Part shown: positions 26,375-41,759 of the stretch, piece by piece | Numbering within the stretch: position 1 is the stretch's first letter | How the letters are laid out: every line of letters starts with the position of its first letter | Virus record (IMG/VR): IMGVR_UViG_3300047546_001263 | Location: 37,261 to 101,260 of that record | Source of the DNA: a virus | Strand: one strand, 5' to 3' | DNA: 64,000 nt | Notes under the pieces: model-generated | Told to the model about the DNA's origin: nothing | What the model saw: only the letters and a program-made list of their open reading frames with translations | Databases searched by the model: none | Position numbers and translations under genes: made by a program

Positions 26375-27025
26375 TTAGTTTTTACAATTTGGTAATTTGA
26401 GAGTTAGGTCTTGTATTATTCCTAGCTTTCTTTCTTTTATATAATTAGTCCAAAGGATGCTCCCTTCGTACTTTTGTGTATACTTTTTTTCAAGATAAGA
26501 ATTAAGTGCATATATATCATCAAAAAAATCAGTATAACTTCTTTTAAATAACTTCTCAATTCCTTCTGGGTAAGTAGTAAACATTCTCTCGTCTAATGTC
26601 TTATATAGATATCTTCCGTATATAAAGTCTTCTTTCTTTCTTCCATTTAATAAAGGGTGTGCATGAATAGCTGCTTCTTGAAAATACTGCTCTACATTCT
26701 TATCGTATTCTATACGTCTTGTTTCTAAGTCTGGTTTAAACTTTATGATAGTTGAGTATTTAGAAAGATCTGAAATTAAATTTGCAGCTTGATATGTAGA
26801 GTGTAGTATTAAGTACTTTTTCTCTTCATACATTGGAACCTCTAAGTTAATAGTAATCCTTGTATTGTTTTGATACCTCATTAACTTATTAACCCACCTT
26901 AGATTCTCAGGAGTATTCCAACTATGAACGTAGGTGTCTACTTCTTCTCCTAAATCTTCTATAAACTTAATAAAGTTATCTGAAAAGTTAGTAAGTAGCC
27001 CTGATATTATTATTGCTTTAGCCAT
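26375..27025 (-). CDS. Hypothetical protein, possibly glycosyltransferase-like
   Basis: AIIISG..DTYVHSW..IIKFKPDL pattern; overlaps the nucleotide-sugar dehydrogenase gene. Confidence 0.45.
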   Translation of the reverse strand: MAKAIIISGLLTNFSDNFIKFIEDLGEEVDTYVHSWNTPENLRWVNKLMRYQNNTRITINLEVPMYEEKKYLILHSTYQAANLISDLSKYSTIIKFKPDLETRRIEYDKNVEQYFQEAAIHAHPLLNGRKKEDFIYGRYLYKTLDERMFTTYPEGIEKLFKRSYTDFFDDIYALNSYLEKKYTQKYEGSILWTNYIKERKLGIIQDLTLKLPNCKN

Positions 27026-28193
27026 TCAGTAATCTAGTATTCCCGTAGTGTATAACCCTGTTAATATCTGATTTATATTCCCTCCATGGATCTATAATAA
27101 CTGAGCCTTTAGGAAAATCAAAATCATGATGTTTCTTATAATGAGCTAGTAGGTAAATTGCTGGTACTGGATCTTCAATGTCGTATAGAACTTCGTACCC
27201 TTGTTCTTCTACATAATAACCTACTAATATAGATGAAGATCCGTCTTCGAAATGTACTCCTGGTTTATAAGATTTACCTAATATAACTACAGGTAATTTA
27301 CGAACTTTTGCGTAAAGAACCAACTTATTTGCTAGATTTTTTGCTTGTTTTTCTCTAGCTTTCATAATGGAATCGAATAAATCGTAACCTAATCTAAGCT
27401 TTTCAGATAAGAATCTTAGTGCTATATTGTCACGAGGGTGGCATCCACCGCCATCTCCCATTCCGGCTTTCATATACGCAGGGCCTAAGATGCGCTGGGT
27501 GCTTCGTTCTAAAGCTCCTGTAACTACGTCTGTGTTTATATTTCCATTTTTTTCAGCAACATCTTGAATCATGTTTACAAGAGCAACTTTGGTTGATATA
27601 AACGTATTGTAAAATATCTTTATTGATTCAGCTTCATCCCAAGTACCTATTTCAATTCTAGTAGAAGGGTTTATAAATGTATTATAAAAGTCTATAAGTA
27701 ACTTAGCGTCCCCTGTTTCTGATCCATCTTCAGTTCCTATAATAACCATTTCTGGGTTGACCATATCATACTTAACCGATCCCATTGCGATTAAATAAGG
27801 ATTGTATATAAACCTAAAGTTATTAACTAGTGGAATAAATTCTCGTCGTATTGTTCCGGGCAATACTGTAGATATTAAAACTACAAGTTGATTAGTATTT
27901 GTGTACTTGTCTACTTTAGTAAGTACTTCTTTTACTATCCCGTAATCAAAATCTTTGTTTTGTAAGTGAGAGGTGGGAAAGCGACCATCGTAGTCTGGGT
28001 GATGCGGTGTAGGTACAGCTATGAAAATGAGATCTTTATCTTTACATACTTTTTCTACATCACTAACCATAGGAAAGTTTACTGTTGCTGCTACACTTTT
28101 ATTTGTATCATACCCTTCAACGTAATGCTTTTCTGACATTACTTCTGCAGCTTCTTTACCTAATTTACCTACCCCTATAAAACCTATTTTCAT
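27018..28193 (-). CDS. UDP-glucose/GDP-mannose dehydrogenase family protein
   Basis: Rossmann GVGKLG, FIAVPTP, STVLPGT, YNP, AESIKIFYNTF, catalytic GGGCHPRD, LGKSYKP. Confidence 0.9.
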   Translation of the reverse strand: MKIGFIGVGKLGKEAAEVMSEKHYVEGYDTNKSVAATVNFPMVSDVEKVCKDKDLIFIAVPTPHHPDYDGRFPTSHLQNKDFDYGIVKEVLTKVDKYTNTNQLVVLISTVLPGTIRREFIPLVNNFRFIYNPYLIAMGSVKYDMVNPEMVIIGTEDGSETGDAKLLIDFYNTFINPSTRIEIGTWDEAESIKIFYNTFISTKVALVNMIQDVAEKNGNINTDVVTGALERSTQRILGPAYMKAGMGDGGGCHPRDNIALRFLSEKLRLGYDLFDSIMKAREKQAKNLANKLVLYAKVRKLPVVILGKSYKPGVHFEDGSSSILVGYYVEEQGYEVLYDIEDPVPAIYLLAHYKKHHDFDFPKGSVIIDPWREYKSDINRVIHYGNTRLLNG

Positions 28194-28196
28194 TTA

Positions 28197-28694
28197 TTAT
28201 TTTGCTTTATAGTCAGATACTAGTAAATTTCCTGCAAAAATCGAATGGTTCTTTGCAACTGTGATATGAGCTACTCTACCTTGGCAAGCTGTAATGCTTA
28301 TCTGATCTATGTTAACCCATACTTGACCGTCAAACATTTTATGTTTATCAGCAGTAACTTTAACTAATTTTTCTGGAGCAATTCCTTCTATTTCAGGAGC
28401 TACTTCTGTAAAGTAACCTAAGTATGTTTCACCTTCAAAATCTTCTCTTACGTATATAATAGAATCTAATGTTAGTACTTGAGGTAAATAGTTAATCTTA
28501 ATACCTTGATAGTATTTTTCATAATCTGCATCAGGGTCAATTTCTACAGAAACAATTTCAGATATTTCAAAGGTAGATTCATCTGTGTTGTATGTAATAA
28601 TAGACTCTCCTGCTTGTAATTCTTCTAAAGTTTTTCTAACAGATCCTAGATCAACTGAAGTATCGAAAGAAAGGGTGTATTTTACGTTGCTCAT
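28197..28694 (-). CDS. Stand-alone Hint-fold-like protein lacking splicing residues
   Basis: TLSFDTSV..KTLEELQAGESIITY (block A-like) and VAHITVAKNHSIFAGNLLVSD (block F/G-like). Confidence 0.6.
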   Translation of the reverse strand: MSNVKYTLSFDTSVDLGSVRKTLEELQAGESIITYNTDESTFEISEIVSVEIDPDADYEKYYQGIKINYLPQVLTLDSIIYVREDFEGETYLGYFTEVAPEIEGIAPEKLVKVTADKHKMFDGQVWVNIDQISITACQGRVAHITVAKNHSIFAGNLLVSDYKAK

Positions 28695-28717
28695 TTTAAT
28701 AATTTTATATAAATAGA

Positions 28718-29644
28718 TTAAATTAACTTTGGTATTTTATTTGAGGTTCTCTTTTCGGAAAAAGTGGTTAAGTGTTCTAAGATTTGATTAGCAAATAATT
28801 CTTGACTAAGTGGTCCTGGGTGAGCGCCGTCTCTAGCAAATCCATCTTTTATATTTTTATGATTTTCTAAAAATTCAAAGTAAGGTAGTGTTTGTTTTTT
28901 AGTCAAGTATTTTTTCTTTAGATACTCATATAAGGGAAAATCCCACGAGCTGTAGAATGTTTCAATATTATTAGCTTTTGCAATTGCATCAATATGAGAA
29001 ACATTTTTTATTGCATTATAGATTTGTACTTCTTCTGTAGCATACGTATAATACTGTTCCCACTTATCTTCTATATGGTGAGGGTGTACATTCGGAATTA
29101 AGTTATAGTAATGCGTGCCCCTCTTTTGCACATGTTCTACATATTCCTCTCTCCAGTGTGTAGGTAATAGGAAGATTGCTATATCTATCTGATATACATC
29201 AGTAAGGTATTTAAAAAGTTTTAAAGATTTTGTAATACTACCGCCTGGGTATCCTAAATTAATAAGTTGAATTGGTTTATCTGTTTTTAACGACTGTTTA
29301 ACTAAAGCATGCCAAGTTTTATCTTCGTCTATACCTACACCGAATGTAAAACTACAACCAAATACTGCGATTTTTAAATGATCTGGTTTTGGATTGTTTA
29401 TAGACCAATCTCCTCTACACGCATAATCATTTATATAATACCTGACATCTTCAAATCTCAATTTCGTTTTATTATCTTCTATAGCTTTTATTGTCTGAGT
29501 CTGTTCAGAATAAGAAGTAAATTGAGTAAATCGATTTAACGCTCCTGTAGCCCAAGGATCTAAGGTCATAATAGTCTTATACTCTAACCTTAAAACTTCA
29601 CAGAAGTGTTTAATACTTTCTATATTCCAAATTATATCATTCAT
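28718..29644 (-). CDS. SGNH/GDSL-like hydrolase or acyltransferase
   Basis: AVFGCSFTFG (block I), NLGYPGGS (block II), RDGAHPG (DxxH). Confidence 0.7.
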   Translation of the reverse strand: MNDIIWNIESIKHFCEVLRLEYKTIMTLDPWATGALNRFTQFTSYSEQTQTIKAIEDNKTKLRFEDVRYYINDYACRGDWSINNPKPDHLKIAVFGCSFTFGVGIDEDKTWHALVKQSLKTDKPIQLINLGYPGGSITKSLKLFKYLTDVYQIDIAIFLLPTHWREEYVEHVQKRGTHYYNLIPNVHPHHIEDKWEQYYTYATEEVQIYNAIKNVSHIDAIAKANNIETFYSSWDFPLYEYLKKKYLTKKQTLPYFEFLENHKNIKDGFARDGAHPGPLSQELFANQILEHLTTFSEKRTSNKIPKLI

Positions 29645-30918
29645 TAAAAGTAGGGTTTAAATTCTGGGTTGAGTTTTAGAAAATCCTGGTTGCGAACTTT
29701 ATCTAAATCTTTTGTTACTGTTATAAATCGTTTGAAAAACTCAGGGTTACCTTCTTTCTTATTCATGATATCTAATAATGATTCCCATCCGGAAAATGGT
29801 ATGCCGTATTTATTTTCCATACTTCTACCGTACTTAGTTATCTTTTCTGTGGCTAATTCTTTTAACTCGTTTGGTAGAGTTTCTAAAGCGTAGTACATCG
29901 GAAAGAATACCGGGTTGATATGAAACCTACTAGTAAAGTAATGACTAGGATCAAAAGGATATTGCTCGTGAGGCTTTTTGTGAATAGGAATTAGCCCCAT
30001 ATCAAAAAACTCTTTATGCATTTGATCTATTCGAAATATATTCAAAAGGCTAATTGTAGGGTGTAGCCAGAAATCAATACCTGCTTCGTTTATCTTTAGT
30101 AGATTTTCTTTCGTCTTAGCCCACTTTCCGTTGTGTCTAACTAGTTCAAAAAGATCTCCAGTCCCGTCTATAGATAAACTAAGATGGACATGCTTAAACT
30201 TTTTCCAAATATCAATAATGTTTCTACCTTTATTTTCCAACATTGTAGCATTAGTAGAATACTTTAACTTAACATCGTATAAGTTACGTTCTTCTAACAT
30301 CTGTATAATTTTCCAATGCTCGGGCATAATTAGAGGTTCACCTCCTGCGAAATGTATTTCTTTTGCACTATGAATAGTCTCTTCTATATTCTGCCAAAAA
30401 CTATCCGCATTATCTAGATTTATTAATCCTAAGTGTTCAGACTTGTCCCCAAACACTTGAATAAAATCTTTAGTCCAAGCTGTACTAAATAGAGGTGAGC
30501 AGGTTCTACATGCTAGGTTACAGTAGTTACTAAATCTAAAATCCCAATAAAGTAATCTAAGTTCATCAATACTCCCATCTTCCTTAGTATTCTCAACTAA
30601 GTCCTCTATCTGATCGAACCAATGATCATTCATACCAATTCTCATACTTCCCATTCCGGACTTTTCTTTACTTACACATCTATGACAAGATGCCGGTAAA
30701 GGTTTTCCTTCAAGCATTCCTTTGCGCATTGATTTAGCCTTCTCACTATTCATGATATCGAATAAAGAAGTATCGTTCACGTTCCCTAAAGTAGACTGGT
30801 TATCTACTGGGGTCATACAACATGGATATGTTCTACCGTCATTCACTACGTGTAAGTGCATCCATAATGCAGAGCAGAAATTTTCTGATTTTTTATAATC
30901 TTTAGTTGAATTGCTCAT
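29644..30918 (-). CDS. Radical SAM enzyme with N-terminal Twitch/SPASM-like domain
   Basis: FCSALW..PCC..CHRC, then CNLACRTC, FAGGEPL, STN, SIDG. Confidence 0.9.
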   Translation of the reverse strand: MSNSTKDYKKSENFCSALWMHLHVVNDGRTYPCCMTPVDNQSTLGNVNDTSLFDIMNSEKAKSMRKGMLEGKPLPASCHRCVSKEKSGMGSMRIGMNDHWFDQIEDLVENTKEDGSIDELRLLYWDFRFSNYCNLACRTCSPLFSTAWTKDFIQVFGDKSEHLGLINLDNADSFWQNIEETIHSAKEIHFAGGEPLIMPEHWKIIQMLEERNLYDVKLKYSTNATMLENKGRNIIDIWKKFKHVHLSLSIDGTGDLFELVRHNGKWAKTKENLLKINEAGIDFWLHPTISLLNIFRIDQMHKEFFDMGLIPIHKKPHEQYPFDPSHYFTSRFHINPVFFPMYYALETLPNELKELATEKITKYGRSMENKYGIPFSGWESLLDIMNKKEGNPEFFKRFITVTKDLDKVRNQDFLKLNPEFKPYF

Positions 30919-32248
30919 TCAATATTCTTTTTAATATAAATACTTCAGCTCTACTAGCTTGTATCATATGTTTATAATTATGTGTAAGTATATTACTCAT
31001 CTGTTTAGTCATCTCTAGTAACTCTTTAGGAGTTTTCTCAACTAAATCTTTCATAATATCTATAATCTTTTCTAACCTTTTGCTAAAGTTCTTTTCTTTA
31101 TCATAAGATTCATCCCAAAAGTCCCCAAATGTTTTAAACCCTAGTTTCTGTAATTCTTCAAGAGTTCCCGGGTTACCAAGAACGATAAAAGGTTGGCAGC
31201 AAAAAATAGGTTTAAATATCTTTTCAGATAAAAATATAGTATCTTCTTCAAACAATGTTTCTGTAAATACGTTTACAAAAGTATTTAGATGAAGAGTTTC
31301 GTTTAGGTTAAAAGCTAGGTTGTAGTTTAAGTTTGAATCTACAAAGTAGTCTTCGTTATTATCGTAGTTGTTAATAAAATCTAATCCCGATTGTTTGTTG
31401 TGTTTATAGTTATCAGGTACAAATGCATCATATAAAGTCATCCAAGGATTATCGTATAGTCTATCCCAATGGTGTTTATCTGCTGATTGATTAGCGTCTA
31501 AGTTACGACTACCCATGCTTAAGACTGTCGAATCTTTTAGTTGCGGGTCTTTTGCAATTTCTGTAAATAATAAAATCCTATGTGTTCTAGGTCTTCTATT
31601 TAGTGAGAGAAATCTTTTAGGCTTTGGGTAAGTTGTAACATACTTTCTTTTATCTTCAAAAGCGATTTGAAGTAACTGGTCGTTACTTTCATCTAGAAGG
31701 TCTTCTTTAATAAACCATGGATTAAGTAAAAAGTAGTTACAGGTTTTTACTGTAAAAAGAGCATTGTCGGGTTCTTCGTAATTCCACTTTAAGTTATTGG
31801 ACAATACTAATACGTCTTCTTTCTGAAAATTATACTTTAATGCAAACTTATTGAGAGCTTCTATTTCATTTACATCTGTTTTTTTAAAATCTCCTTCAAA
31901 TAAATGACTTAAAAGAATCTTAGCTTGTTTATTTTTAACCGCATTAACAATCGTATCGCTCAGCTTATAGTAAGTTTCATCACTAAGTCTACTGAAAGCA
32001 ACTTTATCTCTCAATAAAATAGCGTACATAAACTTTTCAGAACCTTTTATTAAATTATCCACAGTATCATGTCCAAAGCCATGCTCTCGGTAGTCTAAGT
32101 GTTTCTTAAAAAGAAAACCATATACATTATACTTTGCTAATTCATTATAAGTTCGAGGTAAATCTTCTGCCCCTACCTTCCCATTTGGGAGTGGATAGGG
32201 GTTTGGATATTCTTCTAAGTCTACGTATTTGTCAAATCCGAATTTCAT
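30902..32248 (-). CDS. Putative GT-B glycosyltransferase (GT10/exostosin-like C-terminus)
   Basis: FLSLNRRPRTHR..VFTET..LSEKIFKPI..PFIVLG..LQKLGFKTF..WDESYD. Confidence 0.5.
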   Translation of the reverse strand: MKFGFDKYVDLEEYPNPYPLPNGKVGAEDLPRTYNELAKYNVYGFLFKKHLDYREHGFGHDTVDNLIKGSEKFMYAILLRDKVAFSRLSDETYYKLSDTIVNAVKNKQAKILLSHLFEGDFKKTDVNEIEALNKFALKYNFQKEDVLVLSNNLKWNYEEPDNALFTVKTCNYFLLNPWFIKEDLLDESNDQLLQIAFEDKRKYVTTYPKPKRFLSLNRRPRTHRILLFTEIAKDPQLKDSTVLSMGSRNLDANQSADKHHWDRLYDNPWMTLYDAFVPDNYKHNKQSGLDFINNYDNNEDYFVDSNLNYNLAFNLNETLHLNTFVNVFTETLFEEDTIFLSEKIFKPIFCCQPFIVLGNPGTLEELQKLGFKTFGDFWDESYDKEKNFSKRLEKIIDIMKDLVEKTPKELLEMTKQMSNILTHNYKHMIQASRAEVFILKRILNEQFN

Positions 32249-33867
32249 ATCAACTTATGTTTAATGCCCGGTCCGTTTAGATCAGATTCTTTCTTTAGCA
32301 AGTCAATCAAATCAATCATATCGTCTTGCTGCTGATTATCTGGTTCTATGTAATCTTGTGAACCTGGGTTATGCCATTGTGGATTTAATACCCATCCTTC
32401 TTCTTTAGCTTTCTTTAAAACGTCGTGTACGTATCTGTTTGATTTAGCATCATCTCCGTCTATTACCTCTTTAAGAGCATCTAGCTTAGTCTCAGGTATA
32501 GTATCCCACCATTTTTTAATTTCTGGGAAAGCTTTAATGATATCTTTATTTCGTCTTACATCGTACTGAGCATAAAAAGATTTAAAATCTCTTTCTCTAC
32601 TTTCCAAAGACGAAGTAAAAGCATGACCTGTATCTACCTGTTTGATATATTCTATCATCCTAAGTATACCGTCTCTTTCCATATCTAATAATCCGTTAGA
32701 GCCTCCTTTCCAGTTTGCTTCTAACCATTTTTCAATATGAGCTGCTCTCTCCATTCTGATATAAACAGGAAGTGTTACTATAGACTGGAATGAAGGAAAA
32801 CGTAATATATTAAATGACATAATAGCCGCATGAGCTCCATGTTTTGCTTTTAACTTTAACATCTCATCCATAAATTCTGTAATTGAGAATAAACATAATC
32901 CGTTTATAGTCATCATTACGTTTACAGATTTCACATTTGCTTCTTCGTTAACTCGGTACATATTTTGTAACCAAGTTTTCCACTCAAGTCCGTATCTAAT
33001 ATACTCAGCTTGTAGACCTGTAGCTTCACAAGATGTATATAAGTTAAATTCTTTAAAACTATGAGTAGCATCTATAAGAGCATCTAATAGTTCTTTCTTT
33101 TGACCTAAGTTCGAGTTTACTGCAAATGGTACTTCACATTGTGGGTTTTTCTTCCACCAATCCATTAACTTCCAAAAGTCAGGAGACATAGTAGGCTCTC
33201 CTCCAGTTACTCTTAACTCTCGTAAAGAGAATTGTAATTCTGCTTCCCACCATTTCCAAAATGCTTCAATATAGGGATTACCTTCATTCTTTCTTCCATA
33301 AGGCATTGCATGTCTTCCATCGTGTTGAAAGGCTCCAGCGCCGTCTGAGACTAAGTTCTGATACGGCCCAAACTTCTTTATATCATTTTGCCATGTAGTC
33401 GAAAAAGAAGCATTACAGTAAGAGCATCCAAAATTACAATTAGGATCAAAAGCAATCTCAAGTGTCTTAAGGTCAACATCTTCTGTATAACCTAAACTAC
33501 CTTTAGCTTCTTTTAATTCCTCATCTGTATAGATTACTGATTTATATACCCTATCTGATACTTTATCAGGTCCTAAGTCTTCTATCTTCCAACAGTATTC
33601 ACATTCTTTAGGTCGCTCACCTTCCATCATTTGCTTTCTAATAGCTTTCTTGTAGGTAGTGTTGTGAATTGCTTTGTATGACTTAGCAACTTCTTCTAAA
33701 GGTATCTTATGTGCAGGTGGGTGATGACAACTGGCTGTTGTACCGTTACCTAACCATATGGTAGCATTGTACCATTTAGCACCACAAAAGGATTGGGATA
33801 GTTTATTTATAACCCTTTCTCTATATTCTTGGAACGATTCATCGTCCTTTTTTGCGAAAACTCCCAT
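32245..33867 (-). CDS. Radical SAM enzyme with N-terminal Twitch/SPASM-like domain
   Basis: FCGAKW..SCHHP..CEYCW, then CNFGCSYC, VTGGEP. Confidence 0.9.
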   Translation of the reverse strand: MGVFAKKDDESFQEYRERVINKLSQSFCGAKWYNATIWLGNGTTASCHHPPAHKIPLEEVAKSYKAIHNTTYKKAIRKQMMEGERPKECEYCWKIEDLGPDKVSDRVYKSVIYTDEELKEAKGSLGYTEDVDLKTLEIAFDPNCNFGCSYCNASFSTTWQNDIKKFGPYQNLVSDGAGAFQHDGRHAMPYGRKNEGNPYIEAFWKWWEAELQFSLRELRVTGGEPTMSPDFWKLMDWWKKNPQCEVPFAVNSNLGQKKELLDALIDATHSFKEFNLYTSCEATGLQAEYIRYGLEWKTWLQNMYRVNEEANVKSVNVMMTINGLCLFSITEFMDEMLKLKAKHGAHAAIMSFNILRFPSFQSIVTLPVYIRMERAAHIEKWLEANWKGGSNGLLDMERDGILRMIEYIKQVDTGHAFTSSLESRERDFKSFYAQYDVRRNKDIIKAFPEIKKWWDTIPETKLDALKEVIDGDDAKSNRYVHDVLKKAKEEGWVLNPQWHNPGSQDYIEPDNQQQDDMIDLIDLLKKESDLNGPGIKHKLI

Positions 33868-34451: not shown

Positions 34452-35805
34452 AAAATTCGTTTAGTTCAGGGAATGTCTCTAAAAAGTTAGTTCCTCTTCT
34501 TTTATCTAACTCATCTACAAATATAACAAAATCTTTTCTATTTCTTTCTATATCAAAATCATCTTCTGAAGTAGCGTAGTCATAAATGCGTTTTATTTTT
34601 TGAATCTCTACATTAGAGAATCCGTAATTGTCTTTTGTAAATTCCTTTATACCGTAATATAAGGCTTTTTCTGCAGACTTCAAAATTAATGTTTTATGTT
34701 CTGGTTCTAATATCTTAACAGAAAGGTGTGTTGGCCACCTCAAGTAAGATGTATCTAGTTGTAAAGCAGATATCCAATACCTTTGTCCATTAGCATGTTT
34801 CTTTTTCATCTCAAAAGTCTTATCAATCAACTCGTCGTAACTAAATACAGAAAGTGCATTGAATGTCGCCATGATATTGATAGTAACTTTTGGTAAGGCG
34901 GTTAATATCTTATCTACATTACTCCAGAACCTATCATACTCTAATCCATACCTTGTATACTCTGCTTGAGCACCTTTTGCTTCTACTGAAGTAAAGATAG
35001 TTAATTCTCTTACTTTATCATTTTCACAAAGGTCTTTAGCAATTTCAATAAACCTGTCAATTAGGTTATCCGGGACGCCAAGGTTAGAGTTAATTGATAA
35101 AGATAGATTTGGATTCTTATGGTAATGATCTTGTATGTATTCTAGAACTTTAAAAGTATCTTTTGATAATAAAGGTTCACCACCTGTAATTCTAAAGGTA
35201 TGTAAATCTTTGTATAAGTCCGGCCACCATTTCCAAAATGCTTCTACATAAGGATTAAGATCGGAATGTTTATAAGGCATCTCTCCTCTTGCCTGTATAT
35301 TGCTGATATCATTAAAATTGTAGCTAGTTGGGTATGCCCCGTGTTTCTCAATCTCTTCTACCCATTTGGATGAATACTGTGGCCCACAATAAGCACACTT
35401 GAAGTTACAGGTATTTGAGAAAGATACTTCTACATATCTTGGATTGTAATCTTCTCTCCAGTGGCTATCTTTTATCTTATCAAATTGATCTAATGACCAT
35501 GGTTCTGAAGATTTAAAAACTCTATCGGAAAATGAATTAGAACTTTCTTCTACTTTCCAGCAATAGTTACATTCTTCTGGTTTTCCTCCTTCCAACATTT
35601 CTCTCCTCTTCTGCTTTTTATAGGAAGTGTTATGTAGAGCAGAAGGATTTCTTTCTACCTCCTTTAAAGGTATTTTATGTGGTGATGGGTGGTGACAAGA
35701 GTGTGTCATTCCCATTCCTAAGTGCATAGTAACTTGAGTCCATTTTGCTAAACAAAACCCACATCCTACTCCGTCTAGTTTATTTTTTACTTCTTGTAAA
35801 CTCAT
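34435..35805 (-). CDS. Radical SAM enzyme with N-terminal Twitch/SPASM-like domain (paralogue of 32245-33867)
   Basis: FCLAKW..SCHHP..CNYCW, then CNFKCAYC, ITGGEPL. Confidence 0.9.
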   Translation of the reverse strand: MSLQEVKNKLDGVGCGFCLAKWTQVTMHLGMGMTHSCHHPSPHKIPLKEVERNPSALHNTSYKKQKRREMLEGGKPEECNYCWKVEESSNSFSDRVFKSSEPWSLDQFDKIKDSHWREDYNPRYVEVSFSNTCNFKCAYCGPQYSSKWVEEIEKHGAYPTSYNFNDISNIQARGEMPYKHSDLNPYVEAFWKWWPDLYKDLHTFRITGGEPLLSKDTFKVLEYIQDHYHKNPNLSLSINSNLGVPDNLIDRFIEIAKDLCENDKVRELTIFTSVEAKGAQAEYTRYGLEYDRFWSNVDKILTALPKVTINIMATFNALSVFSYDELIDKTFEMKKKHANGQRYWISALQLDTSYLRWPTHLSVKILEPEHKTLILKSAEKALYYGIKEFTKDNYGFSNVEIQKIKRIYDYATSEDDFDIERNRKDFVIFVDELDKRRGTNFLETFPELNEFYVKIK

Positions 35806-37220
35806 AGGGTTATATTTAACATTTTAGCCCAAGGAGTTAATTGCTTTTCTTCTACTAGGGTATATTGAACTTGTTTTATTCCGTCTTCTTTATAGTTAAC
35901 TTCTCCTTGCTGCATCTGTAGTACATAACGTCTTTCATTAGCGGCTGTGGTTTCTCCTTTTACAAACCTACCGTTTACGATTCCCTCATCTGGGTGTGGT
36001 AAGCATCTGAATTTACCTTCTACTCTGTACGGTATAATTGAATTAGGTATTCTAAAAGTCTCTTCTTTTTCTTCTACTCCATAACACTCAATTGTTGTTC
36101 TAGGATAATCTACATCTAAGTTTAAAATAAGATCACCTTTAGGTAGATTTAGATGCATAGAAGCTACCTCTGCAGGAGATAAAGCTCGCTTCCAAGCAAA
36201 TACTTTGGCAATATCTCCTTTAAAATACTTTACAGGATTACCTTCTTCTAACGAAGGAGTCATACCTAGGTAAGCAGAGTTTATTCCATAGCTTTTTAAT
36301 TTACCTTCCCATTCTAGTGGGGAAGGGCTTCCAAAGCCTCCTTTAGAGTCTACTTCCGTTCCGTTTAAGTAGAAGTGGGCAGTTTTTGTACTTTCGTTTA
36401 TAACTGCTGTAACCCAGCTCCACTGATTATCATATCTTTTAACCCACATGTAATTATGTGCATCAAAGTTATTCCAAAAAGTTAGAGTCATAGCTCTAGA
36501 ATTATTAAAAGAAATACCGTAATCATATCCCGGTAATCTAAAAATAGGGTATTCTACGTACTTATTATTAGCATCACCTAATAAAAATATAGGGTTCTTT
36601 TCTGGTTGTTGGAATGCTCGTGTTAATACTGAAATAGTATGACTACCTGCTGTTAATCCTCTCATCTCTCTATGAAAAGGAATTTTTACATACGAATCTT
36701 CTCCATTGAATCTCCAGTACTTTTGCTTTAATGGTTGAGGTCCTAGATATGTAACTCGTGTTAAACCTTCTACATGACATCTCCAAAAGAGATCGTCGTC
36801 TTCCATTCCCCAATCCCAGTAGTTATTAGAATACCCATTTGTAGCTTCTACATGTTCTTTAGTAAATAAAACTGCTCCACCAAAGTATTCATGATACTTG
36901 AGTTGATAGTCCATTTGTGAAATCTTAGTAGCAATATGTCGTGGTCCACTTTCAGGGTATGAATAGTCACAATCTTCTTCTGGGATCATATCAATATCAT
37001 GCCATACTATATAATCACATCCGTCTTCGAATGCATGCTTTGCAGCTATATTTTTTGTAGCTCCTCTATTAAACAACTTATCATCTACTTGGTGACAAAA
37101 GTACATCTGAAAGTCTATACCCTGTTCTTTTAAGTATTTACCTACTTTAGGTATAAACTCATGTAGATGTAGTTCTCTATTTCGATAAGGAACACATACC
37201 CCCAATTTATGCTTTGTCAT
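35802..37220 (-). CDS. GT7 (beta-1,4-galactosyltransferase family) glycosyltransferase with inserted LamG-like domain
   Basis: VPYRNR, FNRG, HDIDMIP, YFGG, NGYSNNYWDWGMEDDDL; internal RFNGEDSYV..FYLNG..FKGDIA segment. Confidence 0.88.
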   Translation of the reverse strand: MTKHKLGVCVPYRNRELHLHEFIPKVGKYLKEQGIDFQMYFCHQVDDKLFNRGATKNIAAKHAFEDGCDYIVWHDIDMIPEEDCDYSYPESGPRHIATKISQMDYQLKYHEYFGGAVLFTKEHVEATNGYSNNYWDWGMEDDDLFWRCHVEGLTRVTYLGPQPLKQKYWRFNGEDSYVKIPFHREMRGLTAGSHTISVLTRAFQQPEKNPIFLLGDANNKYVEYPIFRLPGYDYGISFNNSRAMTLTFWNNFDAHNYMWVKRYDNQWSWVTAVINESTKTAHFYLNGTEVDSKGGFGSPSPLEWEGKLKSYGINSAYLGMTPSLEEGNPVKYFKGDIAKVFAWKRALSPAEVASMHLNLPKGDLILNLDVDYPRTTIECYGVEEKEETFRIPNSIIPYRVEGKFRCLPHPDEGIVNGRFVKGETTAANERRYVLQMQQGEVNYKEDGIKQVQYTLVEEKQLTPWAKMLNITL

Positions 37221-38632
37221 AACGTAACTACTAAGTGGTGATAATTATCTTTATTTTTACTCGAAATTGTTTTGTAACGTAATGTACTTAGACCATCGGA
37301 GTCTAAAGTTAGGCCGTCTTTAAGTTTTTCATAGTATCTCATTTGGTTTTCTCTACTAGCCCAGTTAACCCAATAGCCATCTTTATAACCATTTTCTTTA
37401 TGTTTTAATACTTCAAAAGTACTATACCTTCTACTAGGTACTAACTGGATGTATTCTTGAGGTTGGTAGGTTTCTACTAAACTACAATCAATAAGTTGAC
37501 CATCGTTGTTATTACCTGAGAGGTCTTTTATACTATTACCAACTGTATGTCTTCCGTCATAATAGACTTCTAGATCTGTTTGAGGAGAATACTCTCCAAA
37601 CTCTTGAGTCAATCCATACCTTGAGTTATTATTTAATGTTTTAATTTCAACTGTAGTTAATTCTCTACTAAAGATAGCAAATTCTGTAATGTATCCATAA
37701 AAGTATTTTTGCTTCTCTTCACGTAGCGGATTACCGACTCCTAAGTACATATACTTTTCATCCCAGTAAGGATATAGTAAGTCTTTAATTCCTTTTCTAC
37801 CTATTTTTTCTCCATTCAAATAAAACTCTATTTGCTTAGTTCTCGGGTTAATTGTAACAACACTCTTACAAGCTATTGGAGGTAAGTTTTTAGTATGTAT
37901 AGAATGAGGCTCTCCGTACTTATTAAAAGTTTCGAATTTGTAAGTATTAAATGAATTATAAGATAGATTTAGATCCTGCCCTGGGATTGAGTAGATTGCA
38001 AACTCATCTGTAATTTCTGTTGGTGTAGTTTTTACTCTATACGGTTTAAATGTAGTATAGATCGTCAAAGGTTTTCTAAAGTTACAGACATTAGGAAATC
38101 TAACAAGAGAAGTTTCTCCGTTAAATTCTATTCCTATACCGTTAACTCCGTTTTGCTTATAGAACTTATTTCCAAGAGGTATACCTTTTTCTCGACATCT
38201 AGCTAATAAGTCATTATCTTCAAAGCCCCATCCCCAATATTCATTTGAATATCCGTTAATATCTTCAAATTGTGAAATAGGAAATAGAGTAACTCCTCCA
38301 AAATAATCATCTGTAATAGTTCTTTGCACACCTTCTTCGTATACAAATCTATTAGCTAATTGAGTTGGTTTATCTACCGGACTATAATCTACTTTTACAG
38401 GATGCATATCAACGTCATGAAAACACACGTAGGTACACCCTAAAGCTTTAGCTTTTTGAAATCCTATGTTAAGTAATTTACCTCTATTAAAACTTTTAGT
38501 ATCATTTTGTTCTACGATAATGAGTTCATAGTTGATATTAAGTTCAGTAAGGTAACTAGAAATCTTTAATTTAAAATCAAAAAGCTGCTGAGGTCTATTC
38601 TTATAAGGTACTATAATACCAAGTTTATCCAT
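37217..38632 (-). CDS. GT7 glycosyltransferase with inserted LamG-like domain
   Basis: IVPYKNR, FNRGKLLNIGF, FHDVDM, YFGGV, NGYSNEYWGWGFEDNDL; internal EFNGETS..FYLNG..DLSGNNNDG segment. Confidence 0.9.
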   Translation of the reverse strand: MDKLGIIVPYKNRPQQLFDFKLKISSYLTELNINYELIIVEQNDTKSFNRGKLLNIGFQKAKALGCTYVCFHDVDMHPVKVDYSPVDKPTQLANRFVYEEGVQRTITDDYFGGVTLFPISQFEDINGYSNEYWGWGFEDNDLLARCREKGIPLGNKFYKQNGVNGIGIEFNGETSLVRFPNVCNFRKPLTIYTTFKPYRVKTTPTEITDEFAIYSIPGQDLNLSYNSFNTYKFETFNKYGEPHSIHTKNLPPIACKSVVTINPRTKQIEFYLNGEKIGRKGIKDLLYPYWDEKYMYLGVGNPLREEKQKYFYGYITEFAIFSRELTTVEIKTLNNNSRYGLTQEFGEYSPQTDLEVYYDGRHTVGNSIKDLSGNNNDGQLIDCSLVETYQPQEYIQLVPSRRYSTFEVLKHKENGYKDGYWVNWASRENQMRYYEKLKDGLTLDSDGLSTLRYKTISSKNKDNYHHLVVTL

Positions 38633-38834
38633 TTATTGTTGGATCTTTTGGTTGCGCCATTTTATGGAATTCAGTTAAGTAGAATTGGATACGTTCGCTC
38701 CAGTCATCTTTATCTACTTCTTCAAACCAAATAGTTAATGCATCCATAGATGCTGCAATCTTTTCTAAAGCTCTAACCTTTCTTTCTTCTAAAGCGATTA
38801 GATCTAATTCGTCTTGTTTTAGCGTTTTGCTCAT
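38625..38834 (-). CDS. Small hypothetical protein
   Basis: 69-aa ORF overlapping both neighbours (translational coupling). Confidence 0.7.
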   Translation of the reverse strand: MSKTLKQDELDLIALEERKVRALEKIAASMDALTIWFEEVDKDDWSERIQFYLTEFHKMAQPKDPTING

Positions 38835-39670
38835 ATTGTAACAATTTTATCTCTTAATAAATTCCATTTAGAGTAATCCATATAATCAATATACGAAAAA
38901 TTATTCAATTTTTCAACTTTAAATTCAGGATTACATATATCAATTTTCCAGTCAAATACTTTTATAGCATTGTACATTGTTTTATACTCGGCGGAATATG
39001 CATAAGGTTTATCAATATCAGCTACTTCTTTTATTCTTTCCACACAAGTAGCATCCCATTTAAAATGATGCACCTGGGTAAATACTTCTTCAATAGGCAT
39101 TCTCTTCGGGTGAGCTTTCCCCCAGCTGTTTGTTCCATCTTTAAAAGTAGCATAATGCTGTCCTGAACATACATCTTGAAAACCTTTCATTAGGGTCACT
39201 TTATTAGGACATGCTTTAGACATTAGGTGTCTAAAAAAACCTGCGTAAGGAAAAGCAGAATGAATATCTGTTTCTCTAGTTACTTTCGGAAAGATTCCGT
39301 CAGGTCCTATTCTATCTAAAAAACCTCCTGTTACAAAATCGTATTTATACTTTTCACATTCTTTTATTATGTCTGGTATCTCATACGGGTAAACTTGTAG
39401 TTCGTCATCATCAGATACTATCCACCAGTCATTAGGTTTAGTCTGTTTAATAAAGTTATAAACAGCGGTTACTCTTTCCCAGTTGTACTTCTCATCTGTA
39501 ATAACAATATAGGGTTTAATTCCTAAATCTAAAACTTCTTCAAGTACGCCGTCGTTTTCATCTTGTCGGTAAACAGCTACATAAATCTTATCAACCTTAC
39601 CTTCATAATGCTTTAACATATGAGGGAGTAGGTGGGTATTTCGTCCTACGACTGTTACTAAATTAAGCAT
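38831..39670 (-). CDS. GT2-like (GT-A fold) glycosyltransferase
   Basis: LPHMLKHY..WWIVSDDDEL (DxD)..GQH..HHFKW. Confidence 0.7.
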   Translation of the reverse strand: MLNLVTVVGRNTHLLPHMLKHYEGKVDKIYVAVYRQDENDGVLEEVLDLGIKPYIVITDEKYNWERVTAVYNFIKQTKPNDWWIVSDDDELQVYPYEIPDIIKECEKYKYDFVTGGFLDRIGPDGIFPKVTRETDIHSAFPYAGFFRHLMSKACPNKVTLMKGFQDVCSGQHYATFKDGTNSWGKAHPKRMPIEEVFTQVHHFKWDATCVERIKEVADIDKPYAYSAEYKTMYNAIKVFDWKIDICNPEFKVEKLNNFSYIDYMDYSKWNLLRDKIVTI

Positions 39671-40385
39671 GCTGAATAAGAGTTATACCTGTAGAAGATG
39701 GTTTATTTTTTACAATACCTTCGTTAAAGAAGTTAAAGAGGCGCCATTCTGGTCCAAGCTCTGTTATTAATTTAGAAGGTCCAGAGAAACTATGGTGATC
39801 TTTTTTAGCATCTTCTGATATAATTAAAGATTCTTCATACTGCTTATCTGTATCGTGAATTGCAATTATACCGTTTTTCTTTAGTATTGTTGAATAGAGT
39901 TCAAAATCTTTCTTAACTCCTTCGTAAGAATGATCACCGTCTATGAATAAAAAATCTATTTGAATATCTTGTTTAACAAAAAAGTCATAATAGGCGTCGA
40001 TAGAAGTCGATTTGATAAACCTAGGATAAAACGTCTTCCGGAAGAATGATTCTTCATTATCCAAATCGTTAGGACCGCCAATACCATTACAAGCGTCAAT
40101 GAGATAAGTAACACCGATGTCACCCCAATTATAGTCTCCATTTCCTTCAAAAATACCTTGGTTATATAAGTCAATTCGAGCTTGTGTCATTATACGGGGA
40201 ATAAACCCGCTACCAGACCCGATACATACACATACCTTTGCTCGCATCATCTGTATGATGCTATAAACTAATAAGCCGTCTCCGAGATGTTTATCTGTTG
40301 CGCCATGCGTCCATCTATAGTCTACTGGGGTTCCGTTATTAGTAGTTATTTTTTCTTGTATGTATTTTAAATCTACTATTGACAT
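39663..40385 (-). CDS. Class I SAM-dependent methyltransferase (Methyltransf_24-like)
   Basis: VCIGSGSG, FLFIDGDHSYEGVKKDF, GIIAIHD. Confidence 0.85.
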   Translation of the reverse strand: MSIVDLKYIQEKITTNNGTPVDYRWTHGATDKHLGDGLLVYSIIQMMRAKVCVCIGSGSGFIPRIMTQARIDLYNQGIFEGNGDYNWGDIGVTYLIDACNGIGGPNDLDNEESFFRKTFYPRFIKSTSIDAYYDFFVKQDIQIDFLFIDGDHSYEGVKKDFELYSTILKKNGIIAIHDTDKQYEESLIISEDAKKDHHSFSGPSKLITELGPEWRLFNFFNEGIVKNKPSSTGITLIQHA

Positions 40386-41240
40386 CTACATTACCGTCAT
40401 AAACGATAGGTCTAAGTTAGGCATATTTACGCAATTTTCCAACTCTTTTATTTCCCTTTCGTAATTCTGATCTCCTTCGTTCTTTATAATCCAAGATTTT
40501 AAAGGTCCGTAATGTTTAAAGTATTGTTGAGATTCCTCAAAAGTCCATATACCATTTTCGTGATCCTCACCCCATTGCCATGCTTGACAATCCCAGTAAG
40601 TCCTGATTAACCCTTTTAATGGTTTATTTTTTATCTCTAAGAGATGTCGAAGAAGTAGTTGTTCTGAAAAGATTAAATACTGTGGATTTGGTGCTCCTAA
40701 AGCTGTAAGTTCTTCCATCATATCTAAACTCATATTAGCATACAGTCTAGTAAATTCTGGATCTGGAAGGTGTAAGAAAGCTACACAAGCTGAGTCTGTT
40801 TTCCATCGAGGACGGTAGCTAAGTTTTTTTATTATCTCATCATAACCTGTAGGATAGTATCCTCTTCCTTTCTCTAGATTACATACATATGTTGTATCTT
40901 TTTCTAAAAGGTGTGCAATAGGTTTATAGACTAACGTATCATTATCCATAAGGATAACCGGCTCTGTTTGTTGGGAAAGAACTCCAACTTTGCTAGCCGC
41001 CCAGAATACGTTTCTATCAATGTTTCTTGTGTGGGTGTATTCTTCTATACTATCCCATAAATGAGTAATAGAGAGACGCTCTAAATACTGTAGGGTTAGT
41101 TTATCACAGTACATCACGCAGTTGTGAGTAGGGTGATTTTTCTTCCATAATTGTATAGAAGCAATAAGCATGAGAGTGTTTAGTTTTCCGTAGATTCTCT
41201 CATCATTTTTTATATTTTCTAAAACCCAAATTACTTTCAA
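40386..41240 (-). CDS. Putative GT-A fold protein (DUF6734-like), TTG start
   Basis: MYCD..FWAASK..QTEPVILMDNDT (DxD)..EQ.LL. Confidence 0.5.
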   Translation of the reverse strand: MKVIWVLENIKNDERIYGKLNTLMLIASIQLWKKNHPTHNCVMYCDKLTLQYLERLSITHLWDSIEEYTHTRNIDRNVFWAASKVGVLSQQTEPVILMDNDTLVYKPIAHLLEKDTTYVCNLEKGRGYYPTGYDEIIKKLSYRPRWKTDSACVAFLHLPDPEFTRLYANMSLDMMEELTALGAPNPQYLIFSEQLLLRHLLEIKNKPLKGLIRTYWDCQAWQWGEDHENGIWTFEESQQYFKHYGPLKSWIIKNEGDQNYEREIKELENCVNMPNLDLSFMTVM

Positions 41241-41758: not shown

Positions 41759-41759
41759 T

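Follow-up and report, generated by a model that had tools for sequence, protein, structure and literature searches.

A conserved glycosyltransferase and radical SAM cassette behind a phage tail-fibre gene, with a possible role in building an edited glycan on fibre-associated proteins

Why should an uncultured freshwater phage carry a long run of sugar-handling and radical SAM genes between its tail fibre and tail sheath genes? We addressed this question by computational analysis of a 64,000-nucleotide stretch of viral DNA (the window), in which the enzyme cassette lies immediately behind the tail-fibre gene (Table 1). The region 26375-41240 holds 15 ORFs, all on the minus strand, and not the 14 genes counted in the initial annotation, whose own list also has 15. 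The tight packing described there was confirmed: overlaps of 1-17 nt occur at 11 junctions and gaps (3 and 23 nt) at two, and at one the genes abut. The dN/dS values of 0.02-0.25 across all ORFs show that purifying selection acts on the whole island. Two further small genes, o183 and o154 (41294-42311), belong to the same block, and the tail-fibre protein encoded directly upstream of it contains 26% Ser+Thr and zero Cys. The proposed position between fibre and sheath genes holds in the window, but adjacency to the sheath gene is not general, since ~100 kb separates the two in the phage carrying locus L059. The window's sheath protein, also without Cys, is 66% identical to that of Flavobacterium phage immuto, the closest cultured phage. 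The small ORF o85 also precedes the sheath gene in loci L093, L097 and L145, with dN/dS of 0.08-0.10.

Table 1. Features of the cassette and its flanks (window coordinates).
Feature	Position	Strand	Assignment	Basis
Tail fibre	42313..46449	-	Tail fibre, 1378 aa, candidate acceptor	PHROG tail-fibre families, E 1e-32
o183	41760..42311	-	Small conserved gene, first of o183-o154-g1 triad	
o154	41294..41758	-	Small conserved protein, 28% Ser+Thr	
g1	40386..41240	-	GT-A glycosyltransferase, GT8/GT24-like (DUF6734)	Pfam, AF2, Foldseek
g2	39663..40385	-	Class I SAM-dependent methyltransferase	Methyltransf_24, E 4.6e-12
g3	38831..39670	-	Probable GT-A, GT2-like	Glyco_tranf_2_4 below Pfam cut-off; invariant WW..DDDE
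g4	38625..38834	-	69-aa acidic protein without Cys	
g5	37217..38632	-	GT7a, beta4GalT-type GT-A, Laminin_G_3 within catalytic domain	Pfam, alignment
g6	35802..37220	-	GT7b, paralog with same split design	Pfam, PDB profile, alignment
g7	34435..35805	-	Radical SAM 1 (N_Twi_rSAM)	NF033640, 346 bits
g8	33867..34451	-	194-aa protein, possibly LamG-like	
g9	32245..33867	-	Radical SAM 2 (N_Twi_rSAM)	NF033640, 314 bits
g10	30902..32248	-	GT-B glycosyltransferase	AF2, Foldseek, VIA
g11	29644..30918	-	Radical SAM 3 (N_Twi_rSAM)	NF033640, 375 bits
g12	28718..29644	-	SGNH-type esterase/acyltransferase-like (GCS...N...DxxH)	Invariant residues, weak GDSL
g13	28197..28694	-	165-aa accessory ORF	dN/dS 0.13
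g14	27018..28193	-	Nucleotide-sugar 6-dehydrogenase (UDP-glucose/GDP-mannose dehydrogenase family)	Pfam
g15	26375..27025	-	216-aa accessory ORF	dN/dS 0.04-0.07
o85	26106..26363	-	Small conserved ORF between cassette and sheath gene	
Tail sheath	24232..25977	-	Tail sheath gene, downstream island boundary	Phage_sheath_1

Our results support the presence of at least four firm glycosyltransferases in the cassette. The GT-A-like call for g1 agrees with its match to Pfam DUF6734 (38 bits), with an AF2 model (pLDDT 93.7) for which every top Foldseek match is a GT8/GT24 GT-A enzyme (glycogenin, UGGT, LARGE1 and LgtC being the best), and with a DxD motif, D99-N-D101, whose D99 and D101 are invariant. 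The g5 and g6 proteins, rightly read as GT7 enzymes, are paralogs (30% identical) with a GT7N+GT7C+Laminin_G_3 architecture in Pfam, the LamG module lying inside the catalytic fold. They match the animal enzymes B4GalT7 and B4GalT1 (CAZy GT7; PDB 4irp, 3lw6 and 1tvy) over residues 3-153, with an E value of 7e-30 to beta4GalT7 (4irp), and the alignment shows that they keep the DxD, WGWGxED.D and lid His; DxD, WGWGxEDDD and a C-terminal His...DGL are common to both groups. They differ from the animal enzymes in the insertion of the LamG module (~200-250 aa) between the EDDD motif and the C-terminal block, and in that the phage proteins are predicted to be cytoplasmic and soluble, without a signal anchor. 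The g10 family has 8676 representatives and no Pfam model, but the AF2 model (pLDDT 92.8) was identified as GT-B by Foldseek, and all its VIA matches (Z 12.1-10) are GT-B enzymes, as had been proposed. In many loci g10 and g14 are neighbours, and they are fused in one viral protein (BFVD A0A6J5TB28). The GT2-like reading of g3 survives in weaker form: its WW..DDDE is invariant, but the match to Glyco_tranf_2_4 (E 4.5e-5) lies under Pfam's cut-offs and the hhalign result was not significant, so that g3 is probably, on weak grounds, a GT-A enzyme.

All three radical SAM calls stand, since g7, g9 and g11 score 314-375 bits against the twitch domain-containing family N_Twi_rSAM (NCBIfam NF033640), whose cut-off is 170 bits. 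The three proteins share an N-terminal 4-Cys auxiliary-cluster domain and the CxxxCxxC motif; g7 has a dN/dS of 0.02, g9 shows a C-terminal extension of ~85 aa in the alignment, and g11, with its SPASM domain at the N-terminus, is placed by the tree in a deep, diverse clade. Our literature search found no paper assigning NF033640 a reaction, the family having a catalogue name only. In function, it can best be compared with two twitch enzymes that modify sugars, BtrN by oxidation and NeoN by epimerisation. In bacteria, the neighbours of the family include GT2, SGNH, carbamoyltransferase and aminotransferase genes, with GT2 and SGNH the commonest that are not themselves radical SAM genes. The only cultured-phage homolog of g7 is gene 349 of Ralstonia phage RsoM2USA (39.5% identical).

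The remaining enzymes can be assigned to families consistent with the tailoring of a glycan and the supply of its donor. The methyltransferase call for g2 is upheld by its Pfam match (Table 1), and the SGNH-like call for g12 by the invariance of S98, N129, D272 and H275, together with weak GDSL matches; close relatives of g12 are 49-80% identical. The nucleotide-sugar dehydrogenase g14 has the UDPG_MGDP_dh N and central domains in Pfam and matches UGDH in the PDB (E 6e-20), its catalytic Cys being retained in the alignment; its score to TIGR03026 (144 bits) is under the cut-off of that model. It depends on a nucleotide sugar made by the host.

Several small ORFs accompany these enzymes. The 69-aa g4 is a real gene, as first suggested, being found with the GT7 pair in 73/73 distant loci with dN/dS of 0.085-0.14. 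o183 (dN/dS 0.14-0.17) occurs in 23 distant loci, every time ahead of o154 and g1, and the alleles of these three genes co-vary; o183 has no match in protein-family libraries or the PDB. Nor has o154 (dN/dS 0.10-0.18) a match in the PDB; it is possible that this protein is fibre-associated or itself an acceptor. The LamG-like call for g8, which lies between rSAM1 (g7) and rSAM2 (g9) in 23 distant loci, stays at the level of a lead: its ESM-Atlas neighbours carry Laminin_G_3 (scores 0.96-0.97), but its comparison with the GT7 LamG insert by hhalign was not significant. The labels given to g13 (Hint-like) and g15 (GT-like) were not sustained, g13 having no match in protein-family libraries and g15 none among Pfam, NCBIfam, PHROG and PDB profiles. 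g13, which has a promoter-like motif upstream, is absent from loci L010-L012 and from all 73 distant loci.

When examined for co-inheritance, the island proved to be collinear in 73 distant viral contigs, chosen by GT7 homology and including near-duplicates. The GT7 pair and g4 occur in all 73, the GT2 in 72, a radical SAM in 67 and the methyltransferase in 64, giving a core of MT-GT2-69aa-GT7-GT7-rSAM followed by a variable tail. The recurrence of this order indicates that the arrangement is not due to chance. The island is absent from immuto, which has no match to the GT7, rSAM1 or g10 proteins and in which about five small ORFs separate the fibre gene from the sheath gene; the cassette is thus dispensable for basic infection. 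These observations support the view that the island is an accessory, co-inherited glycan-building and tailoring cassette, and it belongs to a widespread, modular type found behind the tail-fibre gene in uncultured aquatic phages. A freshwater bacterium of the Bacteroidota is the probable host. Contigs from RNA libraries are the sole RNA evidence, which is weak, DNA carry-over being a possible source.

The link to fibre genes also extends beyond the window. In 11/11 distant loci there is a fibre-like ORF, poor in Cys (0-2 residues) and with 18-23% Ser+Thr, whose end lies 4-43 nt ahead of o183, and the cassette still follows a fibre ORF (3506 aa) in a phage whose MCP is only 41% identical. Among the nearest large upstream ORFs, 9/28 match tail-fibre PHROGs, and in many distant loci it is other enzymes, and no fibre, that lie directly upstream of the methyltransferase. 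Fibre adjacency could reflect only a shared location in a recombining 'host recognition' region.

The initial annotation saw in the island a complete pathway for making, polymerising and tailoring a nucleotide sugar. This cannot be maintained: hydropathy analysis gave no membrane segment in any of the 15 island proteins (highest 19-residue value ≤1.57), and the island lacks an initiating phosphoglycosyl transferase, flippase, polymerase or exporter, so that it is not a complete surface-polysaccharide pathway. Since all its enzymes are predicted to be soluble, their site of work would be the cytoplasm of the infected cell. A co-inheritance check did not bear out the further suggestion that they elongate glycans for which the enzyme at 1-2152 lays the primer: the P4H gene beside that enzyme was found in only 1/4 large phage records that carry the island, and of the records lacking it two are 97-100% complete.

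From the enzyme families, folds, catalytic motifs, solubility, conserved order, fibre linkage and purifying selection, we infer the acceptor, the sugars and every reaction of the following model. Its best reading, to which we give a probability of about 0.45, is that the cassette glycosylates fibre-associated phage proteins in the cytoplasm with an unusual, edited glycan. The dehydrogenase g14 would turn a nucleotide sugar of the host into a uronic-acid donor by oxidation, and four to five glycosyltransferases (the GT8-like GT-A, the probable GT2, the two beta4GalT-type GT7 enzymes and the GT-B) would build sugars stepwise onto a protein acceptor, probably held by the inserted LamG module of the GT7 enzymes. 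The likeliest acceptor would be the adjoining Ser/Thr-rich tail fibre or the small Ser/Thr-rich o154. The methyltransferase, the SGNH acyl-handling enzyme and the three N-terminal-twitch radical SAM enzymes would then edit the glycan, the last most likely by oxidising, epimerising or dehydrating its sugars at unactivated carbons. With a 5' half that is constant from the methyltransferase to rSAM1 and a 3' half (radical SAM paralogs, GT-B, SGNH and dehydrogenase) that recombines, the cassette would make glycans differ between related phages.

The enzymes might instead alter a lipid-linked glycan of the host (O-antigen, capsule or a glycolipid precursor) at the cytoplasmic face of the membrane, a host flippase or exporter then displaying the altered glycan, with masking of receptors and exclusion of superinfecting competitors. 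The glycosyltransferase and radical SAM genes of the pelagimyophage host recognition cluster have been read in this way (PMC7029224), capsule loci typically have a sugar dehydrogenase, and peripheral O-antigen glycosyltransferases are likewise without membrane segments. In bacterial chromosomes, moreover, N_Twi_rSAM arrays lie amid multi-pass membrane proteins, UbiA-type enzymes, GT2 and SGNH genes, which fits an envelope product there. The island itself encodes no membrane protein and none of the initiation, flipping, polymerisation or export functions, its order relative to fibre genes is kept across distant phages, and the closest cultured phage does without it. In addition, 301 genomes of class Bacteroidia, reached via the Flavobacterium MAG behind locus L016, gave no match to the GT7-LamG profile, which indicates that no host-type pathway is being copied. 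We therefore consider envelope remodelling doubtful.

It is improbable that virion proteins are the direct substrates of the radical SAM enzymes, with tail or fibre residues being cross-linked or epimerised and the glycosyltransferases serving a separate function at a shared locus. SPASM/twitch enzymes are mostly peptide maturases, the secondary NCBIfam matches are to sactipeptide, ranthipeptide and cyclophane maturases, and RsoM2USA gene 349 follows the sheath and tube genes at a distance of a few genes, in a neighbourhood where no glycosyltransferase can be recognised. Against this, rSAM1 comes immediately after the GT7 pair in the majority of the 73 loci, GT2 and SGNH are the commonest neighbours of the family in bacteria apart from other radical SAM genes, the lack of Cys in both fibre and sheath excludes thioether chemistry, and no RRE-like or leader-peptide feature was seen. 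The resemblance to RiPP maturases, and the presence of a small conserved ORF amid radical SAM, glycosyltransferase and methyltransferase genes, would also suit a glycosylated peptide or small-molecule natural product with g4 as the modified and decorated precursor. This we hold to be less probable still, as g4 is acidic, has no Cys, is conserved over its full length with no leader/core pattern and in most of the 73 loci has the GT7 pair, and not the radical SAM genes, as its immediate downstream neighbour; no protease, exporter or immunity gene is present. There is only a slight chance that the glycosyltransferases act on the phage's DNA, assembling glycans on its modified bases. Hypermodification of DNA with diverse glycans by virus-encoded glycosyltransferases is known (Pyle 2024, as cited in PMC12619734), and the g10 fold ties with T4 beta-glucosyltransferase (VIA Z 12.0), but the ties include many GT-B enzymes that do not act on DNA. 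The locus lies in the tail region, not in a nucleotide-metabolism region. Furthermore, we know of no DNA-glycosylation system with GT7/GT8-like enzymes, LamG modules, an SGNH protein or a uronic-acid-forming dehydrogenase.

Cytoplasmic glycosylation of fibre-associated proteins can be compared with several known systems. Chloroviruses also combine a sugar dehydrogenase of their own with glycan-making enzymes (has, ugdh and gfat of PBCV-1, for hyaluronan/chitin synthesis), but their synthase sits in the membrane and extrudes the polymer to the outside of the host cell, whereas the cassette encodes no membrane protein. In mycobacteriophages, virions are glycosylated by phage-encoded enzymes (Freeman et al., 2023, as cited in PMC12619734): glycosyltransferases and methyltransferases adjoin the structural genes, the enzymes are cytoplasmic and the glycans sit on virion proteins. 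That system is not known to include radical SAM, GT7-LamG, sugar dehydrogenase or SGNH proteins, all of which the cassette has, and its targets are capsid and tail-tube C-termini in siphoviruses of Actinobacteria, whereas the probable host here belongs to the freshwater Bacteroidota. The host recognition cluster of pelagimyophages and cyanomyophages (Zaragoza-Solas et al., 2020; PMC7029224) was described at the level of annotation only and read as modifying the host O-chain, and the conserved collinear core, the GT7-LamG design and the N_Twi_rSAM family identity are not recognised in that account. It resembles our cassette in being a hypervariable island among the structural genes of aquatic myoviruses, in combining tail fibres with glycosyltransferases, UDP-glucose 6-dehydrogenase and cassettes of radical SAM genes, and in its gradual divergence from one related phage to another (PMC7029224).

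The window covers the final 64 kb of an IMG/VR contig that is 101 kb long and estimated to be 58% complete. Between its tail fibre and tail sheath genes lies an island of 15 ORFs (g1-g15, numbered from position 41240 down to 26375), all of them, like every gene of the region, on the minus strand. The initial annotation had counted 14 genes here while naming 15 in its own list, and it had correctly described the flanks, with a tail fibre gene on one side (PHROG) and a tail sheath gene on the other (Pfam). Eleven of the 14 junctions between island ORFs are overlaps of 1-17 nt, one abuts and two leave gaps (3 and 23 nt). The nearest cultured relative is Flavobacterium phage vB_FspM_immuto (66% sheath identity), which makes a freshwater member of the Bacteroidota the probable host. 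Since the fibre-to-sheath stretch of immuto contains only about five small ORFs, including one lysozyme, and a tblastn search of 50,697 GenBank phage records gave no immuto match for the glycosyltransferase GT7b (g6), the radical SAM protein rSAM1 (g7) or g10, the island is an accessory insertion. Its DNA had no megablast match among GenBank phages, and PHROGs returned nothing for ten proteins without a known family. Island DNA of near-identical sequence occurs in 14 or more DNA runs, which come from 10 or more studies of freshwater, reservoir, river, estuary or drinking water.

Features of the island and its flanks, with their conservation (positions in the window)
Feature	Position	Strand	Assignment or remark	Identity among close relatives	Distant loci
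Tail fibre, 1378 aa	42313-46449	minus	PHROG tail-fibre families, E 1e-32		
o183, small ORF	41760-42311	minus			
o154, small ORF	41294-41758	minus			
Island, g1-g15	26375-41240	minus			
g1	40386-41240	minus			
g2, methyltransferase (MT)		minus			64/73
g3, GT2-like		minus			72/73
g4, 69 aa		minus			73/73
g5 and g6, both GT7 queries		minus			73/73
g5, GT7a	37217-38632	minus			
g6, GT7b		minus		91-97%	
g7, rSAM1		minus		94-98%	
g9, rSAM2	32245-33867	minus		94-98%	
Radical SAM (rSAM)		minus			67/73
g10		minus		56-81%	
g12		minus		49-80%	
g13		minus	missing in three close relatives		
g15		minus		67-90%	
Tail sheath	24232-25977	minus	Pfam; tube and baseplate hub come next		
TATTTATA, examples	10997, 22595, 23623, 24211, 28708, 47437, 53115, 59285, 61225		mostly at minus-strand structural genes		

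We consider it probable (about 0.8) that the island is a glycan-building and tailoring cassette. The products of g5 and g6 match Pfam Glyco_transf_7N and 7C (E 6e-16 to 7.5e-18) and align with beta4GalT7/T1 (4irp, 3lw6) over residues 3-153 (phmmer E 7e-30). Both retain the DxD, WGWGxED.D and C-terminal His...DGL blocks, residues D73, D75, W133, W135, G136, E138, D139, D141 and H411 being invariant in the GT7 alignment, and their sequences and motifs place them as predicted members of CAZy GT7; the C-terminal His may be the counterpart of the metal-binding His of B4GalT1. Whereas a contiguous catalytic domain is expected in CAZy GT7, that of g5 and g6 is split by an inserted Laminin_G_3 (LamG) domain, which in g6 (residues 172-353) separates the EDDD motif from the C-terminal GT7 block. 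Where GT7b and the relatives of GT7a have EDDD, GT7a of the window has WGWGFEDND.

Pfam DUF6734 is the only sequence-family match of g1, GT8 sequence membership itself not being reached, and Foldseek comparison of its AF2 model (pLDDT 93.7) returned GT-A enzymes of GT8/GT24 type and nothing else, namely glycogenin, LARGE1, LgtC and the catalytic domain of UGGT (E 6e-7 to 1e-5, TM 0.45-0.55). With a DxD (D99, D101) unchanged across 23 orthologs, g1 is predicted to be a GT-A fold enzyme of the GT8/GT24 clan. The g10 family has 8676 representatives and no Pfam model; the AF2 model of g10 (pLDDT 92.8) has exclusively GT-B enzymes as top Foldseek matches and scores Z 12.1-10 over 260-307 residues in VIA, which identifies g10 as a predicted GT-B fold glycosyltransferase with two Rossmann-like domains. 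The VIA matches tie PglH-like 6eji, T4 beta-glucosyltransferase, FUT9 and H. pylori FucT; for CAZy GT10, g10 has no Pfam match and an ESM-Atlas lead of 0.79, with FUT9 and FucT tied with other GT-B families. The GT2-like label proposed for g3 stays weak, as its GT2 matches are sub-threshold and its profile showed no significant similarity to the GT7 and g1 profiles (hhalign), although WW..DDDE is invariant in g3. The ESM-Atlas neighbours of g8 are LamG-like (scores 0.96-0.97), and hhalign of g8 against the LamG insert of the GT7s was not significant. Sequence and profile searches of the PDB gave nothing usable for g10, g1, g8, g15 or the small ORFs o154 and o183 located 5' of g1. The 69-aa protein g4 is acidic and without Cys; it is a real gene, because its dN/dS is 0.085-0.14 and it is present in every distant locus.

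The g2 product matches Methyltransf_24 (E 4.6e-12). In g12, S98, N129, D272-x-x-H275 and G96-C97 are invariant among 28 sequences; its block I reads GCS, not GDS, and the block I Ser, block III Asn and block V DxxH are all present, the motif set of an SGNH/GDSL hydrolase, while family-level matches are weak (Lipase_GDSL E 0.0065, under the cut-off; PDB GDSL chains E 0.024-0.5). The g14 product matches PF03721 (E 1e-16) and PF00984 (E 1.2e-15), and its GGGCHPRD aligns at the catalytic Cys with GGSCFQKD of 2o3j, in keeping with a predicted enzyme of the UDP-glucose/GDP-mannose dehydrogenase family; it scores 144 bits against TIGR03026, for which the cut-off is 190. Its C-terminal domain has no Pfam match at E<=0.01, yet the 2o3j alignment reaches residue 338 of the query. 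Since g10-like GT-B genes adjoin the dehydrogenase gene in many loci and an uncultured-phage protein (BFVD A0A6J5TB28) is a fusion of the two, we infer that g10 uses the product of g14. The "Hint-like" and "GT-like" labels originally attached to g13 and g15, respectively, found no library or profile support.

Three island proteins, g7, g9 and g11 (rSAM1, rSAM2 and rSAM3), score 345.8, 313.7 and 374.5 bits, respectively, against NF033640 (cut-off 170; model positions 1-398), which identifies them as predicted members of the N_Twi_rSAM family. All 16 diverse members compared share the CxxxCxxC cysteines (C133, C137, C140) and the N-terminal C15, C34, C78 and C81, and Pfam SPASM falls on residues 15-81 of g11. 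An acidic-rich C-terminal extension of about 85 residues is found in g9 and is absent from rSAM1 and rSAM3. In a quick tree, rSAM1 and rSAM2 form one strongly supported superclade with phage and bacterial members in each clade, and rSAM3 sits on a long branch within a deep, diverse group; the paralogs are ancient. The sole cultured-phage homolog of the rSAM1 clade in GenBank is gene 349 of the Ralstonia jumbo phage RsoM2USA (39.5% identical), annotated as hypothetical. It belongs to a series of overlapping genes and comes a few genes past those for the sheath (359) and tube (356), whose products are confirmed virion proteins (PMC8504454). Pfam assigned no family to ten neighbours of gene 349.

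Outside phages, N_Twi_rSAM genes occur in scattered bacteria and MAGs as arrays of 2-5 genes, and exceeded the cut-off in 15 of 301 Bacteroidia genomes sampled, a set reached through the genome behind a Flavobacterium MAG locus (L016). Their bacterial neighbours encode GT2, SGNH, carbamoyltransferase, PhyH and DegT enzymes, and the chromosomal arrays additionally adjoin genes for UbiA and multi-pass membrane proteins. In three Bacteroidia genomes (chromosomal loci L154-L158), 4-6 N_Twi_rSAM genes are interleaved with genes for membrane proteins of 7-16 segments, together with UbiA prenyltransferases, GDSL_2 proteins, carbamoyltransferases and GTs; these arrays look like loci for an envelope glycoconjugate of unfamiliar kind. 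Either 4-5 N_Twi_rSAM genes in tandem, or a radical SAM gene with g10-like and UGDH genes, are present on short TMED/MED "MAG" contigs classified as Betaproteobacteria or Rickettsiales (L020, L023, L033, L040), which may be phage contigs binned with hosts.

The whole island is kept in 12 close relatives (sheath 92-94% identical), g13 excepted in three, and the identities of individual genes form a mosaic among them. Every ORF has a dN/dS of 0.02-0.25, and dS is 0.3-2.3 in the island compared to 0.07-0.38 in the adjacent sheath and tube genes (window 23709-41240 against the related loci L006, L010, L072 and L077), which argues that the island genes are functional and that the locus holds old, recombining alleles; the several-fold excess of dS points to recombination with divergent lineages. 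More distantly, the profile of the LamG-split GT7 (GT7-LamG) has at least 557 relatives in IMG/VR. Among the 73 distant loci kept (42-51% identical; some are near-duplicates and many are cut by contig ends), the order MT-GT2-69aa-GT7a-GT7b-rSAM1 repeats and is followed by a variable tail with 0-6 extra radical SAM paralogs, GT-B genes and sometimes the dehydrogenase. The sheath gene closes this tail in seven distant loci, preceded in three of those by the small ORF o85. Both o183 and o154 were found in 23 distant loci, o183 always followed by o154 and g1, and the three genes are either all present or all absent. In close relatives their alleles fall into two classes (about 60-64% versus 79-94% identity) that switch together and independently of g2 onwards; o183 and o154 belong to the cassette block.

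The GT7-LamG profile matched nothing in the 301 Bacteroidia genomes, the class in which the radical SAM family was sampled, but does match a 248-kb contig (L059) filed as a Flavobacteriaceae MAG. With a major capsid protein (MCP) 41% and a sheath 40% identical to those of the window, this contig is the genome of a large phage that had been placed in a bacterial bin. The cassette is a feature of phage lineages, not of hosts. The L059 cassette lies about 100 kb away from the sheath gene; directly before the cassette stands an ORF of 3506 aa that, at its end, matches the window fibre's C-terminus. Of the position among structural genes originally noted, it is thus the linkage to the fibre that is conserved, and not the adjacency to the sheath. 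Each of the 11 distant loci that begin at o183 has, 4-43 nt upstream, the end of an ORF poor in Cys (0-2 Cys, 18-23% Ser+Thr), and 9 of 28 pooled upstream ORFs have tail-fibre PHROG matches. The L059 cassette also contains genes for an Anp1-like GT, a DUF6071 protein, a GDSL protein and a carbamoyltransferase.

As to what the cassette modifies, we give a virion protein somewhat less than an even chance of being the acceptor. The highest 19-residue hydropathy across the 15 island proteins is 1.57, with no membrane-like segment, and no initiating phosphoglycosyl transferase, flippase/ABC transporter or polymerase was found among them by hydropathy, Pfam and NCBIfam. The initial annotation had read the island as a complete pathway, a claim that does not hold with no membrane or export machinery among its proteins; a self-contained surface-polysaccharide locus (Wzx/Wzy or ABC type) was rejected on the absence of the required membrane proteins. 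Soluble enzymes, the lack of an exporter, a cassette of phage lineage and its travel with fibre genes together make stepwise glycosylation of fibre-associated phage proteins in the cytoplasm the best supported reading. Methyl, acyl and radical editing of the glycan would be carried out by the tailoring enzymes, and a constant core with a swappable tail could create glycan diversity. Phage GT and MT genes adjoin structural genes here, as in the mycobacteriophage type of virion glycosylation, a known phage glycosylation cassette as cited in PMC12619734.

Remodelling of the host envelope, for which the enzymes would have to rely on host exporters, is an unlikely alternative. The bacterial setting of N_Twi_rSAM genes is a sugar or envelope context. 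Direct action of the radical SAM enzymes on virion proteins appears improbable. Our literature search found no paper giving the N_Twi_rSAM family a reaction. We regard a peptide or small-molecule product as very improbable, and a RiPP cluster was rejected, g4 being without Cys and evenly conserved and Pfam revealing no protease or transporter. DNA glycosylation, to which the tie of g10 with T4 beta-glucosyltransferase would point, is hardly to be expected.

Radical SAM cassettes have been described together with GTs and UGDH in the host recognition cluster of pelagimyophages (PMC7029224). The literature searched yielded no paper on the present cassette, and no description of its conserved core, of the GT7-LamG design or of N_Twi_rSAM arrays was found in searchable papers. 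To our knowledge, few cultured phages have been recognized to encode glycosylation of their virions, and the "host recognition" islands of aquatic phages have so far been read at annotation level only. The cassette is common and combines three unstudied designs: a GT7 with a lectin fold inserted into it, a large GT-B family without a Pfam model and the N_Twi radical SAM family. If fibres are decorated, a chemical layer would be added to phage-host recognition, along with new glycan-editing enzymes; if instead the host surface is remodelled, lytic phages would have a superinfection exclusion of a new kind, and with either target the radical SAM family gains a testable substrate class. More tentatively, and with some doubt, we propose that many uncultured aquatic phages bear, on their tail fibres, a glycan made by animal-type GT7s, edited by a radical SAM family and diversified by swaps of the variable cassette half. 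Such a fibre glycan would allow sugar chemistry beside fibre sequence to vary host recognition or escape from host defences, and would be the first protein-linked glycan with radical-SAM tailoring. The co-occurrence of a LARGE1-like fold with GT7, LamG and a uronic-acid dehydrogenase invites the speculation that the product is glycosaminoglycan- or matriglycan-like.

Many structural genes, and g13, have the coding-strand motif TATTTATA, or close variants of it, 12-40 nt ahead of them, often with TTCGTA in front of the motif; a related TTCGTAATTTTAAT precedes g1, and ATATTTATT variants stand before the fibre and sheath genes. The motif is probably a phage promoter element, to judge from its placement upstream of genes, which is its only notable property, as the count of TATAAATA over the whole window is not above that in shuffles. 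No such motif occurs in the intergenic gaps of g1-g12, where every junction overlaps or abuts. Scans of the window for sigma-70 promoters (66 sites versus 71 expected) and terminators (4 versus 7) were uninformative. In three studies, the sheath gene and scattered genes of the island are covered by RNA-library contigs; these are compatible with island transcription, strand, level and true transcription not being readable from them.

The enzyme at window positions 1-2152 had been proposed to prime the glycans of the island. This tie is not supported by the inheritance of the P4H/GT module to which it belongs: P4H is found in only one of four large island-bearing phage records, two of the records without it being 97-100% complete, and the two modules are thus not co-inherited. 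Adjoining this module, which extends into window positions 1-3406, are three ORFs of 251, 257 and 966 aa upstream of the window (G000:C1 26911-31622), which are rich in Ser+Thr (25%) and Pro (16-25%).
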